DNA of 64,000 nt from an uncultured Clostridia bacterium (GTDB lineage Bacteria > Bacillota > Clostridia > TANB77 > CAG-508): assembly GCA_934122235.1 (NCBI GenBank), contig CAKOWE010000003.1, forward strand, positions 3,716 to 67,715, given 5' to 3'. This document shows positions 57,159 through 60,936 of this stretch, in pieces; position 1 is the stretch's first letter, and every line of letters starts with the position of its first letter. Position numbers and translations under genes: made by a program. Below the pieces are notes generated by a model that was given only the letters and a program-made list of their open reading frames with translations, was not told where the DNA came from and made no database searches.

Positions 57159-59327
57159 ATGTTAAGGAAAAACCTACAAAATGTAAGTAAAAAAACAATA
57201 AGTATAACAATGATAATAATTATAATATATACGCTAATAAATGCATTAATATGTAATAAATCATATGCTATTACTCAAGTACGAAATATGGATTCAAACA
57301 ACATATATAATATTGATGAGAATTTATATCCAGGATATGCAACTTTATTAAAAAATTTAAAAACTACACATCCTAATTGGACATTTACTTTATTTTATAC
57401 TGATTTGGAATGGTCAGAAGTATTAATGAATGAAACAACAGCAAATCATGCTAGAAGTTTAGTACAAGGAAAAACGGGAGAGTGGTTATGTACAGATCCA
57501 CAATGTGATGGAATACCTCATGATGGTGCAAGTTGGTTTGGAGCGTCACAAACAGCTGTAGCATACTATATGGATACAAGAAATTTTTTAACAGAAGATA
57601 AAATATTTCAATTTGAAGCATTATCTTACATACCGTCAGTTCATACCGAAGCTGGTGTAGAAGCTGTTCTTAGAGGATCTTTTATGAGCAATACAAAAAT
57701 TTCTGATTATTATGGCAATTCTAACTATGGAGATAAAACTTTTGCTCAAACTATAATGTATGCAGCAGAAGCTTCTGGCGTAAGTCCGTACCATATTGCA
57801 TCAAGAATTCGACAAGAAGTTGGGACAAATGGTAGTGACTCAATAACAGGAAAAGTTTCAGGATACGAGGGATATTTTAACTTTTATAATATTGGAGCAT
57901 ATGCAAGTAGCGATCCAGTTATAAATGGGTTGATATATGCAAAAAGAAGTGATGTTAATTGGGATACACCAGAAAAATCTATAGTAGGTGGAGCTAAGTG
58001 GATTGCAAATGAGTTTATATCAAAAGGACAAGATACAATATATTTACAAAGATGGGATGTGGATAATCAATATCTTGGTTTATATTGGCATTTATATCAA
58101 ACTAATATACAAGCACCGGCTAGTGAATCAAGTACAGTTTATAGTAGTTATAAATCTATATTTAACAATGATTTAACTAATACAAATTTTAATTTTATAA
58201 TACCTATGTATAAGAATATGCCGATATCTGTATCTAGATATCCGAGCAGTTCAACTTATGTTTCTCAAAATGCAAAAATATATGATGTTATTGGAAGCGG
58301 TGTAAATATAAGAAGAGAACCAGCAGGAACACTTATAGGTACATATTCAAATGGATATCAATTTTTAAGAATAGAATTAAAAGCAGCAAAGGTAAATGGA
58401 ATAACATGGGACAAAATAATGCTTCAAGATGGAACTATGGCGTATATTGCTACTCAATATGTTGTTGAAACAATACAAGGAGAATTATCAAAAGAGGCAT
58501 ATATAAATGCTAATGCTGAATTATTAAATGGACCAAGGGTAGTTCAGAATGGAACAACCAATGTTAGACAGTTATTTACAGGGCAACTTGTAACGATATT
58601 AGAAGAAGGTAAATATAATTTTGATGGATATTCATGGACTAAAATAAAACTAAAAGATGGATCATATGGATATATTCAAAGTGGTTTTGTAACAGAAGGA
58701 ACATATGGTGAAAAAGTAACAATAACATGTAACACTGAATTAGCATTGAGAGATTCACCATATGGAAGTATAATAAAATATATAGAGCCAGGAGTTATAG
58801 TAAATAGAATAGAGAAAGCAACGACACAAGTTAGTGGCTATTATTGGGATAAGGTAATAACATATGATGGATTAGTCGGATATATGGCAAGAGAAAGATA
58901 TAATCCATATTCATTATGGTTAACTCCTGTAAATGGTGATAATATAATCCCATCAACACCAGACGATAAATTATTATTAAATGAAACAGAGAAGACTATA
59001 AAAGTAATACCACAAACTATTTTGAGTGATATAAAAGAAAAATATGAAGATGCAGTGTTAGTGTCTGGAACAGAAAATTTAGGTACAGGTTCTAAAGTAA
59101 GTATAAATGGGGTAGAATATACTATAATAAAATTAGGCGATGTAAGCGGAGATGGAGAGGTTGATGCGAGAGATTCTTTAAGAATATTAAAGTATACAGT
59201 AGGTTCTTTTGAAATAAAGAACGAGTATATTAAAGCTGCTGATTTAAATGGAGATGAAATTATAGATGCAAGAGATTCCTTGAGAATATTAAAATATACA
59301 GTGGGATCATATTCTATTAATTTATAA
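57159..59327 (+). CDS. GH73 N-acetylglucosaminidase (autolysin) with three SH3b repeats and a C-terminal type-I dockerin
   Basis: Glucosaminidase region (FAQTIMYAAEASGVSPYHIASRIRQEVG..GYFNFYNIGAY); three about 70-aa SH3_3 repeats; tandem Ca-binding segments GDVSGDGEVDARDSLRILKYTVGS / ADLNGDEIIDARDSLRILKYTVGS. Confidence 0.75.
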   Translation: MLRKNLQNVSKKTISITMIIIIIYTLINALICNKSYAITQVRNMDSNNIYNIDENLYPGYATLLKNLKTTHPNWTFTLFYTDLEWSEVLMNETTANHARSLVQGKTGEWLCTDPQCDGIPHDGASWFGASQTAVAYYMDTRNFLTEDKIFQFEALSYIPSVHTEAGVEAVLRGSFMSNTKISDYYGNSNYGDKTFAQTIMYAAEASGVSPYHIASRIRQEVGTNGSDSITGKVSGYEGYFNFYNIGAYASSDPVINGLIYAKRSDVNWDTPEKSIVGGAKWIANEFISKGQDTIYLQRWDVDNQYLGLYWHLYQTNIQAPASESSTVYSSYKSIFNNDLTNTNFNFIIPMYKNMPISVSRYPSSSTYVSQNAKIYDVIGSGVNIRREPAGTLIGTYSNGYQFLRIELKAAKVNGITWDKIMLQDGTMAYIATQYVVETIQGELSKEAYINANAELLNGPRVVQNGTTNVRQLFTGQLVTILEEGKYNFDGYSWTKIKLKDGSYGYIQSGFVTEGTYGEKVTITCNTELALRDSPYGSIIKYIEPGVIVNRIEKATTQVSGYYWDKVITYDGLVGYMARERYNPYSLWLTPVNGDNIIPSTPDDKLLLNETEKTIKVIPQTILSDIKEKYEDAVLVSGTENLGTGSKVSINGVEYTIIKLGDVSGDGEVDARDSLRILKYTVGSFEIKNEYIKAADLNGDEIIDARDSLRILKYTVGSYSINL

Positions 59328-59352
59328 ATAAATTATGAAAGGAAGATAACAA

Positions 59353-60936
59353 ATGAGAAATAAAATATTAGTAATGGTATTATTTATATTTGTATTGCTG
59401 GGACTTAATACGGTGATATCTTATGGGGCAATAAGTGCATCGTCAAAAACTGTAAATTCAGGGGAAAATGTTACAATATCAGTTTCTTCATCAGAAGTTT
59501 TAGGTGCATATACAATTAAAGTTATAGATAATGGGGGATTAACATTTGTAAGTAGTTCGTCTAAAAATGGACAAGCCAATGGAACTATTATAAGTGGCTC
59601 ATCACCAACTGGAATTAAAGATAATTTAGGAGAGTTTACTTTTAAGACACCGAGTGTTAGCAAAGATACAACATATTATGTAAAAATTCAATCATCTGGA
59701 ACAGAAGGTCCAAATTTAGAAAATATCAATGGATCAACCGCAACTGCAACAATAGTAGTAAAAGCTCCAGTACAACCAAGCCCTGTTGTTAAACCAAGTC
59801 CAAGTACACCAACAAATCCATCACCTGCTGCTCCAACATTTTCTAGTGTAAATGAAACGGTGTATGCAACAAATGATGTTTTTGTAAGGAGCAGTTATAG
59901 TACAAGTAGTAGTAGTTTAGGACAATTAAAAAAAGGGGAAAGTATTATAAGAGTAGGAATTAGTACTACAAAGGTTAATGGATATTATTGGAGTAAAGTA
60001 ACATATAATGGAAAAACAGGTTATATAGCTTCAAACTATTTAACAACCACTAAACCAGCTGAAGATCCAAGTCCGTTACCTAGTTCACAACCAGAAGAAA
60101 AATCAAAAGATGCAACATTAAAAAGTTTGACTATAACTGGACTTGAACTTACGCCAGTATTCGATTCTACTATAACAAGTTATGTTGTTAATACTAAAGA
60201 AAATATGACAGAAGTAGAAGTTTTAGCTGAAGTAAATGATACAAAGGCAAAGGTAGAAATTATTGGAGCTAAAGAACTAAAAGAAGGAGAAAATTTAATA
60301 ATTGTAAAAGTAACTGCAGAGGATGGAACTACAAAAGATTATGAAATAAAGTTAATAATTGGAGAACAAAAAATTCCATTGAATGCATTTGTAATCTTGG
60401 GTATAAAAGAAAATGGAGAACAACTAGAAATTGAATTAGGGAATCCTATAGTTTCAGAAAATACTGTAGAATATATTATAAACTTGGAAGAATGGTTAAA
60501 ATCAATAAATATATTAGGGAGTTTAAATAATGAAACATATCAATATGAAGGAATAGGTGCATTTGATTTAGTAGTAGGTGAAAATAAGTATACTATAATA
60601 TTAAAAGAATTACAGGAAAATGCAGAAGCTAACCAAATAGAATATAAAATAACAATAAATAATCCGGAAAAAGTAATTATTGTAGAAGAAACAAATGAAA
60701 CAAATTATAAGATTGCAATAGCGATATCAGCAATTGTTTTAGTAACAATATTAGCGATAACTGGACTAATAGTATATTATAAAAAACAAAATAAAGTAGA
60801 ATATGCAAAAACAGATTATTCATTTTTAAAGAAAGATGAAGAGTCACAAAATAAAGAAAACGAGCAAGATATAGAAGAAAGAAATGTATCAAATGATAAT
60901 GAAGATGGAAAGAAAAAAGGTGGAAAACATTTTTAA
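59353..60936 (+). CDS. membrane-anchored surface protein: N-terminal cohesin-like beta-sandwich, SH3b, cadherin-like beta-sandwich, C-terminal TM + charged tail
   Basis: Signal peptide; residues about 25-140 cohesin-like (TVNSGENVTISVSSSEVLGAYTIKVIDNGGLTFV); SH3b (NGYYWSKVTYNGKTGYIASNYL); PF12733-like (DATLKSLTITGLELTPVFDSTITSYVV); TM IAIAISAIVLVTILAITGLIVYY. Confidence 0.5.
   Translation: MRNKILVMVLFIFVLLGLNTVISYGAISASSKTVNSGENVTISVSSSEVLGAYTIKVIDNGGLTFVSSSSKNGQANGTIISGSSPTGIKDNLGEFTFKTPSVSKDTTYYVKIQSSGTEGPNLENINGSTATATIVVKAPVQPSPVVKPSPSTPTNPSPAAPTFSSVNETVYATNDVFVRSSYSTSSSSLGQLKKGESIIRVGISTTKVNGYYWSKVTYNGKTGYIASNYLTTTKPAEDPSPLPSSQPEEKSKDATLKSLTITGLELTPVFDSTITSYVVNTKENMTEVEVLAEVNDTKAKVEIIGAKELKEGENLIIVKVTAEDGTTKDYEIKLIIGEQKIPLNAFVILGIKENGEQLEIELGNPIVSENTVEYIINLEEWLKSINILGSLNNETYQYEGIGAFDLVVGENKYTIILKELQENAEANQIEYKITINNPEKVIIVEETNETNYKIAIAISAIVLVTILAITGLIVYYKKQNKVEYAKTDYSFLKKDEESQNKENEQDIEERNVSNDNEDGKKKGGKHF

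Follow-up and report, generated by a model that had tools for sequence, protein, structure and literature searches.

A GH73 glucosaminidase with a C-terminal dockerin and an adjacent membrane protein with a predicted cohesin fold: a probable docking pair in uncultured gut Clostridia

This report concerns two adjacent genes in a 64,000-nucleotide stretch of DNA (the window) from an uncultured Clostridia bacterium of the CAG-508 lineage (assembly GCA_934122235.1, contig CAKOWE010000003.1, positions 3,716 to 67,715). The first gene (57159..59327, + strand) encodes a secreted glycoside hydrolase family 73 (GH73) glucosaminidase of 722 amino acids (protein 1), with three SH3b-like repeats and a dockerin. 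The second gene (59353..60936, + strand) encodes a type I membrane scaffold protein of 527 amino acids (protein 2), as read from the list of open reading frames (ORFs) and a homologue alignment. Both ORFs lie on the + strand exactly where an earlier interpretation, made from the letters alone (the sequence-only reading), had placed them. The dockerin of protein 1 and the cohesin-like N-terminal domain (N-domain) of protein 2 probably form a matched docking pair, by which the GH73 enzyme is held on the producing cell.

The type I dockerin occupies residues 661-722 of protein 1 (59139..59324, + strand) and is composed of two F-hand repeats, identified through Pfam and PDB matches. The Pfam Dockerin_1 model (PF00404) matches residues 659-713 over profile positions 1-55 of 57, with 42.4 bits against a cutoff of 22.9 (E 7.8e-11), and a PDB sequence search likewise returns dockerins for the C-terminus. 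The C-terminal duplication described in the sequence-only reading is present, as are the strings quoted for it. The two 12-residue loops, at residues 661-672 and 695-706, read DVSGDGEVDARD and DLNGDEIIDARD. Each carries D, S or N at the Ca-binding positions 1, 3, 5, 9 and 12 and is followed by SLRILKYTVGS, and the recognition helices are identical (...DARDSLRILKYTVGS). Between the repeats, 15 of 16 amino acids and 39 of 48 nucleotides are identical, with the protein identity of the helices kept despite eight synonymous differences. As identity is high in the protein and lower in the DNA, the repeats are taken to be kept alike by selection, rather than by a recent duplication. The dockerin would be expected to bind a cohesin in a Ca-dependent manner.

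The proposed receptor is the N-domain of protein 2, a cohesin-like beta-sandwich of 113 amino acids (residues 26-138; 59428..59766, + strand). An AlphaFold2 model of this domain, based on 41 homologues, has a predicted local distance difference test score (pLDDT) of 96.5 and adopts a nine-stranded flattened beta-sandwich (jelly-roll) fold, as cohesins do. When the model is used as a Foldseek query, cohesins rank 1 to 8 (E 5e-6 to 8e-5), and cohesins are the top match by two independent structure-search methods. By sequence, a PDB profile search puts the type III cohesin 5n5p first among the matches that cover the whole domain, but its E of 0.066 is not significant. The window N-domain is a cohesin by predicted structure, and not demonstrably so by sequence. 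The cohesin-like domain of about 115 residues put forward in the sequence-only reading is borne out by the AlphaFold2 model and the Foldseek ranking and so is not refuted on the point of its fold, with the Pfam Cohesin family silent on it. Within the 64-kb window, protein 1 carries the sole dockerin and the N-domain of protein 2 is the sole cohesin-like domain.

The pairing of the two genes is conserved far beyond the window. It was followed in a sample of 80 loci, one genome per species, all from metagenome-assembled genomes (MAGs) or CAG bins of uncultured gut Clostridia; among them are CAG:571, CAG:273 and CAG:508, as well as a pair of closed chromosomes (1.57 and 1.70 Mb). In 74 of these 80 loci, the protein 2 homologue is directly preceded, on the same strand, by a gene of GH73-SH3-dockerin architecture. 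In four loci that look like exceptions, frameshifts or split calls place the dockerin in a different frame, one locus begins at a contig end, and five loci are distant relatives with the SH3 region alone in common. The claim of a two-gene module made in the sequence-only reading is upheld by this conservation, and by the finding that the dockerin and N-domain co-vary as a unit. In L027, L029/L040, L072 and L003, frameshifts or gaps in the scaffold break up the gene for the GH73-dockerin enzyme and leave the dockerin out of frame; such split genes in MAG loci could be assembly errors or decaying copies.

Two loci hold variants of the arrangement. Locus L063 contains a second, paralogous module (11531..15093 of that locus), with an enzyme of GH73-SH3-2xBig_2-dockerin architecture (Pfam Dockerin_1 E 2.4e-5), followed by a transmembrane (TM) protein that has two Cadherin-like domains, lacks SH3 and begins with a further type of N-terminal domain. 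In L068 (225..3309), the order is reversed: a cohesin-like-SH3-TM anchor gene precedes a gene for a large surface protein of immunoglobulin-like (Ig-like) domains, which carries a dockerin-like segment internally (YGDVNQDGYVDVLDAHKIF...). A PDB sequence search with the N-domain of the L068 anchor matched two type I cohesins and nothing else, at an E of about 0.8 that is not significant. The locus suggests that anchors of this type are not limited to GH73 as their cargo. As a sequence bridge to the canonical cohesins, the L063 paralogue and the L068 anchor gave no Pfam cohesin match and non-significant PDB matches.

Co-variation was measured in 62 complete pairs, from pairwise distances for the GH73 domain, the dockerin, the N-domain and the rest of protein 2. 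The distances of the dockerin and the N-domain are strongly correlated (Mantel r 0.77), while either of them correlates with GH73 or with the rest of protein 2 at an r of about 0.2. Controlling for GH73 and the rest of protein 2 leaves a partial r of 0.75 (p<=0.0005) between dockerin and N-domain; the partial r between the dockerin and the rest of protein 2 is -0.02. The classes behave in the same way, with an adjusted Rand index of 0.82 for dockerin versus N-domain classes and of -0.06 for dockerin versus GH73 backbone. There are five multi-member backbone clusters, each of which holds at least two cassette classes, and no half-swapped locus, in which the dockerin and N-domain classes would be mismatched, was found among the 62 pairs. 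The dockerin is as divergent as the N-domain (mean distance 0.66), and GH73 is the most conserved part (0.47).

DNA identity profiles define a swappable cassette of about 0.7 kb (about 59139..59847, + strand; mapped onto the window via L001, which is identical to it), which runs from the dockerin through the 25-nt spacer, signal peptide and N-domain to the linker. In 13 of 13 locus pairs, the first dockerin codon is the exact point where the DNA identity falls from 70-99% to about 40-55%. At the 3′ border, identity recovers in the linker, just ahead of the SH3 domain of protein 2, again in all 13. Pairs with flanks that are 90-99% identical include L065/L067, L050/L051 and L020/L025. The dockerin and the N-domain are a cassette that is replaced together by recombination.

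The N-domains fall into three classes, each with its own dockerin helix types. Class 1, to which the window belongs, is found with the helices DARDSLRILKY, TPADSTVILRAY and DTLDSLKALK; class 2 with SADLLxIQRHLL, NSGDSLIxKQHV, DVIDLALLKRHL and NSTDLYYVIKFLK; and class 3 with DYVKIKNYIM. Canonical cohesins bind the dockerin through the 8-3-6-5 sheet, which includes strands 3, 6 and 8. Seven of the 11 positions that separate two class 1 subtypes fall on these three strands, by an inferred strand mapping and with phylogeny uncontrolled. Searched member by member with Pfam, class 3 N-domains match Big_2 in 10 of 16 cases and those of class 2 match PKD or PPC (up to E 4e-7). Profile-profile comparison scores the three classes as homologous at 92-98% probability, and in the alignment strand 6 of class 1 has no counterpart in class 3. 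The N-domains of classes 2 and 3 may be either divergent homologues or replacements by another fold. Given these Ig-like partner classes, the term “cohesin” fits the window allele and not the whole family. It is tentatively suggested that a core wall hydrolase is docked here through a polymorphic, privately keyed system, built on a cassette of about 0.7 kb with at least three receptor classes (one cohesin-like, two Ig-like); this wider reading is a real possibility that may well not hold.

Several observations weigh against a docking pair. The contiguity of the two modules lets a single recombination tract swap both of them, so that their co-variation is weaker evidence than the correlation coefficient suggests. 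Pfam Cohesin (PF00963) has no match at E<=1 for the window N-domain, and among the homologues it gives sub-threshold matches in five of 41 (best E 0.02). In sister lineages, the dockerin-linked N-domain is mostly Ig-like (Big_2 or PKD-like), not cohesin-like. On the side of the enzyme, a role as an autolysin, in wall turnover or cell separation, is suggested by family membership alone.

The same observations lend themselves to an explanation by linkage without binding. The exposed tip of protein 2 would diversify under pressure from phages, antibodies or competitors, and the dockerin, which lies within 100 bp, would hitch-hike with it; the dockerin itself would bind something else, or merely stabilise the enzyme. 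This account draws on the contiguity of the dockerin and N-domain in the DNA, on the silence of Pfam Cohesin, and on a partner domain that is of differing fold types between lineages, which is unusual for a dockerin receptor. It predicts scattered breakpoints, however, whereas the 5′ breakpoint is the first dockerin residue in every one of the 13 pairs. It also sits poorly with the lack of half-swapped loci, and with a dockerin that diverges as strongly as the N-domain (0.66, against 0.47 for GH73) although it is not the exposed tip. The window N-domain, moreover, has a fold known to bind dockerins. Selection for matched partners, on the other hand, would be expected to place the breakpoints at domain borders in each pair and to leave no half-swapped loci, as is seen. 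Linkage without binding is considered unlikely.

A second alternative is that the dockerin and N-domain are not in contact, and that both recognise the same strain-variable glycopolymer of the wall. Co-variation would be equally expected in that case, and Ig-like, PKD and Big_2 domains are common carbohydrate-associated modules. Type I dockerins, by contrast, are known as a family of protein-binding modules, and the partner domain in the window is cohesin-like. Strains with 90-99% identical flanks differ in their cassettes, so wall polymers would need to switch equally often, and in the loci examined no polysaccharide genes are linked to the module. A shared third ligand is judged quite improbable.

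The least probable alternative, held to be very doubtful, is an antagonistic system in which the GH73 enzyme is a weapon against neighbours and protein 2 a producer-side receptor or immunity-like sequestering factor, with the polymorphism arising from an arms race. The layout, a variable C-terminal module followed by a variable start of the next gene, does resemble that of polymorphic toxins, and dockerins occur on putative lysozyme modules in rumen metagenomes, where these lysozyme-like modules have been suggested to serve competition (Bensoussan et al., PMC6487960); yet it is the dockerin that varies, and not the catalytic domain that an immunity protein would neutralise (GH73 being the most conserved part), the neighbouring genes are housekeeping ones, and the presence of the module in nearly every related genome sampled, including chromosomes of 1.6-1.7 Mb, fits a core wall function.

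On the preferred reading of a docking pair, a mechanism can be proposed. Protein 1 would be exported and its signal peptide removed. The GH73 domain would then cut the glycan strands of peptidoglycan, with the SH3b repeats binding the wall, and the Ca-dependent dockerin would plug into the cohesin-like outer tip of protein 2. As a predicted type I membrane protein, protein 2 would present, from the tip inwards, the cohesin-like domain, Pro-rich linker, SH3b domain and two Cadherin-like sandwiches. It may also bind the wall, and its ectodomain appears long enough to span a Gram-positive wall. The hydrolase would thereby be held on the producer cell, at a set distance from the membrane, and the anchor may be linked to a partner inside the cell through its conserved cytoplasmic ...GKHF end. 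Through adjacency and joint replacement, each strain would keep a private, matched plug-and-socket pair. Overall, the best explanation of the two genes is an operon-like module for a cell-associated peptidoglycan hydrolase.

The domain organisation of protein 1 is consistent with such a role. Its N-terminus resembles a cleavable signal peptide (residues 1-37; 57159..57269, + strand), with a basic n-region, an 18-residue hydrophobic core and a putative cleavage site between ...KSYA and I. Apart from this, no TM segment is present. The GH73-type N-acetylglucosaminidase catalytic domain spans residues ~40-345 (57276..58193, + strand) and was recognised through PDB sequence matches to SagB (6fxp, E 1.9e-14), AtlE (4pi7, E 6.2e-14) and Atl (6fxo, E 8.5e-13). 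The NCBIfam SagB model also matches (E 5e-17), at 62 bits against a cutoff of 425, so the protein is not a SagB equivalog. Pfam Glucosaminidase (PF01832) has no match at E<=1 to either the whole of protein 1 or the isolated domain. The glucosaminidase assignment of the sequence-only reading stands on homology to solved GH73 enzymes, then, and not on the Pfam model that had been named for it. The putative catalytic residue is Glu220 (57816..57818, + strand), which aligns with the Glu of the SagB “LLETG” motif and is invariant in 62 of 62 related loci; we take the aligned Glu to be catalytic from the published GH73 structures. The motif Y-x-N-[FY]-[FY]-x-[IV]-G-A is present as YFNFYNIGA and is conserved among related loci.

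Downstream of the catalytic domain are three SH3b-like repeats (residues 372-436, 453-512 and 521-582; 58272..58904, + strand), assigned by Pfam or by motif. The middle repeat passes the Pfam SH3_3 threshold (30.7 bits in the whole protein, 28 bits alone) and the third lies below it (E 0.018); the first is recognised solely by the shared W-x-K-[IV]-x3-DG-x2-[GA]-Y motif. A pre-dockerin module follows (residues 604-660; 58968..59138, + strand), ending in a ...YT[IV][IV]K[LK]G junction. It has no Pfam match and is conserved across loci as far as the cassette breakpoint.

Protein 2 begins with a predicted signal peptide (residues 1-25; 59353..59427, + strand), suggested by its sequence and by a conserved pattern in the alignment. 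Between the N-domain and the SH3b domain is a Pro-rich linker (residues 139-165; 59767..59847, + strand), which varies in length and sequence among aligned homologues. The SH3b domain (residues 166-232; 59848..60048, + strand) matches Pfam SH3_3 (E 1.4e-9) and the SH3 domain of a cell-wall hydrolase, PDB 2kq8. It is followed by two Cadherin-like beta-sandwiches (residues 254-336 and 341-437; 60112..60663, + strand). The first of these matches Pfam PF12733 (E 9.3e-8), and the second, missed by Pfam, aligns with the first in hhalign (99.5%, E 1.6e-22). The TM helix (residues 452-476; 60706..60780, + strand) is a run of 25 consecutive hydrophobic residues followed by KKQNK, and its position is conserved in homologues. 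A charged cytoplasmic tail of 51 amino acids completes the protein (60781..60933, + strand). The SH3b domain, cadherin-like sandwich, C-terminal TM helix and charged tail of the sequence-only reading are all found, with the correction that the Cadherin-like copies number two, not one.

Searches with protein 2 returned 810 homologues, all with the SH3_3 and Cadherin-like architecture. Among the best 120 of these 810, the C-terminus ends in G[KR][HR][FY], usually GKHF-COOH, in 110, and the remainder of the cytoplasmic tail is hypervariable in length and sequence. In the window, the motif takes the form KKKGGKHF, the last eight residues of the tail (60910..60933, + strand). The (K/R)xGKHF-COOH terminus looks like a short linear motif for a cytoplasmic partner.

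The two genes lie on the same strand, with a gap of 25 nt between them. Gene 1 has a strong AGGAGG ribosome-binding site (57145..57150, + strand), and AGGAAG serves as the corresponding site ahead of the ATG of gene 2. A promoter-like TTGACT-17-TATACT sequence was found by consensus scan in the intergenic region 5′ of gene 1 (57081..57109, + strand); the number of promoter-like sites in the region is not above chance, and only its position makes this one plausible. A scan for terminators found none 3′ of gene 2. The G+C content of the window is about 28%, and identical copies of proteins 1 and 2 occur on several gut-metagenome contigs. The neighbours of the pair are housekeeping genes: an L,D-transpeptidase-like gene, U32 peptidases, uvrA and a Mur ligase. 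A prophage or endolysin lysis cassette was also considered and rejected. PHROGs matches the GH73 domain only, and such a cassette is unlikely because protein 2 belongs to no PHROG and the neighbours are housekeeping genes.

Further features were noted in the flanking DNA. Directly 5′ of the GH73 gene is a gene for a tiny Cys/Gly-rich membrane protein (MPEERNCGCGCNNNGG...EILFFIIIFLLLFTNCGCGCGRGCGCN; 56823..56981, + strand), followed on its 3′ side by a hairpin and T-run at about 57010..57060. No Pfam or NCBIfam family matched this protein, which may resemble the YjcZ-like tiny sporulation proteins. It was rejected as a third component of the module, for it occupies this position in only 14 of 58 related loci and so is not core. 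Upstream of it, two consecutive ORFs of 569 and, downstream of this, 211 amino acids (54305..56822, - strand) both match Peptidase_U32 and may represent a split U32 peptidase gene or a tandem pair. On the other side of the module, uvrA (61100..63930, + strand) is broken into three ORFs of about 44, 275 and 623 amino acids, with the first frameshift inside the first Walker A motif (GLSGS / GKSSLAF). Since four independent metagenome contigs show the same split, it probably reflects a genuine pseudogene or a variant found throughout the population, and not an error of assembly.

It is understood only in part how Gram-positive bacteria hold the wall hydrolases that they secrete at their own surface and at the correct depth. 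Wall-binding repeats, anchors intrinsic to the enzyme's membrane attachment and membrane partners (SpdC, ActH and FtsEX among them) are known to serve this end. If the docking reading is true, a GH73 enzyme joined by a cohesin-dockerin plug to a scaffold that spans the wall would add one more to these means. This would also move the cohesin-dockerin interaction from polysaccharide degradation to envelope housekeeping, in a large group of uncultured gut Clostridia with small genomes. Cassette exchange would supply protein engineering with a naturally occurring collection of orthogonal pairs, and the prediction is that cognate pairs bind and non-cognate pairs do not. Should the Ig-like classes bind dockerins as well, then dockerins have partners other than cohesins and the accepted one-to-one link between the two would need revising. 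The own-cell specificity of the autolysin would in that event be under diversifying selection, for example against the recruitment of a neighbour's hydrolase or against phages that use the exposed tip.

Full-text literature searches found no description of a module that joins a GH73-dockerin enzyme to an SH3b/Cadherin-like scaffold. The closest published precedent found is Ruminococcus bicirculans, for which a single cohesin and a dockerin associated with GH73 are mentioned in one sentence by Ze et al. 2015 (PMC4611034), citing Wegmann et al. 2014. It too is a gut Firmicute that is non-cellulolytic and has a single cohesin-dockerin pair, linked to GH73, and the likeness extends as far as that one-sentence genome observation describes it. 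In Cellulosilyticum lentocellum, ClcC and ClcD are encoded by adjacent genes with a single cohesin and a single dockerin, which share one transcript and whose products have been shown to form a heterodimer (PMC13487519). This is likewise a minimal adjacent gene pair, but its cargo is a cellulase, and neither an SH3b/Cadherin-like membrane scaffold nor cassette polymorphism is described for it.

The cellulosomal type I pairs of C. cellulolyticum (2vn5) and C. thermocellum (1ohz) resemble the module in having a duplicated F-hand dockerin at the C-terminus of the enzyme. The symmetric helices are as in dockerins with a dual binding mode, and the partner is predicted to be a nine-stranded cohesin sandwich. 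Unlike the cellulosome, the window holds one enzyme and one receptor, with no multi-cohesin scaffoldin and no carbohydrate-binding module. The cargo is a peptidoglycan hydrolase, not an enzyme of plant cell wall degradation, and the receptor, which Pfam Cohesin misses, is carried on a C-terminal TM helix rather than by surface-layer homology domains or sortase attachment. Non-cellulosomal modules are known from Clostridium perfringens, in the NagJ GH84 cohesin (2w1n/2o4e) and the GH33 sialidase cohesin (2vo8). In those modules, secreted toxins that degrade host glycans are joined to each other, whereas here a wall hydrolase would be joined to a membrane protein of the same cell.

Outside the cohesin-dockerin systems, a membrane-bound glucosaminidase complex is formed by SagB and SpdC of Staphylococcus aureus (bioRxiv 10.1101/2020.05.21.109470). 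The catalytic domain of protein 1 is most similar to that of SagB, and SagB is a GH73 enzyme whose site of action is set by a membrane partner. SagB, however, is anchored by a TM helix of its own, and its partner is a polytopic CAAX-like protein that it binds in the membrane, whereas protein 1 is soluble and its proposed docking to the bitopic protein 2 would be extracellular; the resemblance is a functional analogy, as the features of membership in that system are absent. Polymorphic toxin systems (contact-dependent inhibition, Rhs and similar) are organised as cassettes of a C-terminal toxin and its immunity protein. As in these systems, exchange takes in the variable 3′ end of one gene and the beginning of the following one as a single block between conserved flanks, and cognates are kept together; here, in contrast, the variable modules would be a docking pair and not a toxin with its inhibitor, and the catalytic domain is conserved. 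Among the known systems, the module is of the kind of the non-cellulosomal cohesin-dockerin pairs, an interpretation that is supported in silico. Genuinely new are its clade-wide breadth, the SH3b/Cadherin-like membrane scaffold with a conserved cytoplasmic end, and the cassette polymorphism, which includes receptor classes that do not look like cohesins.

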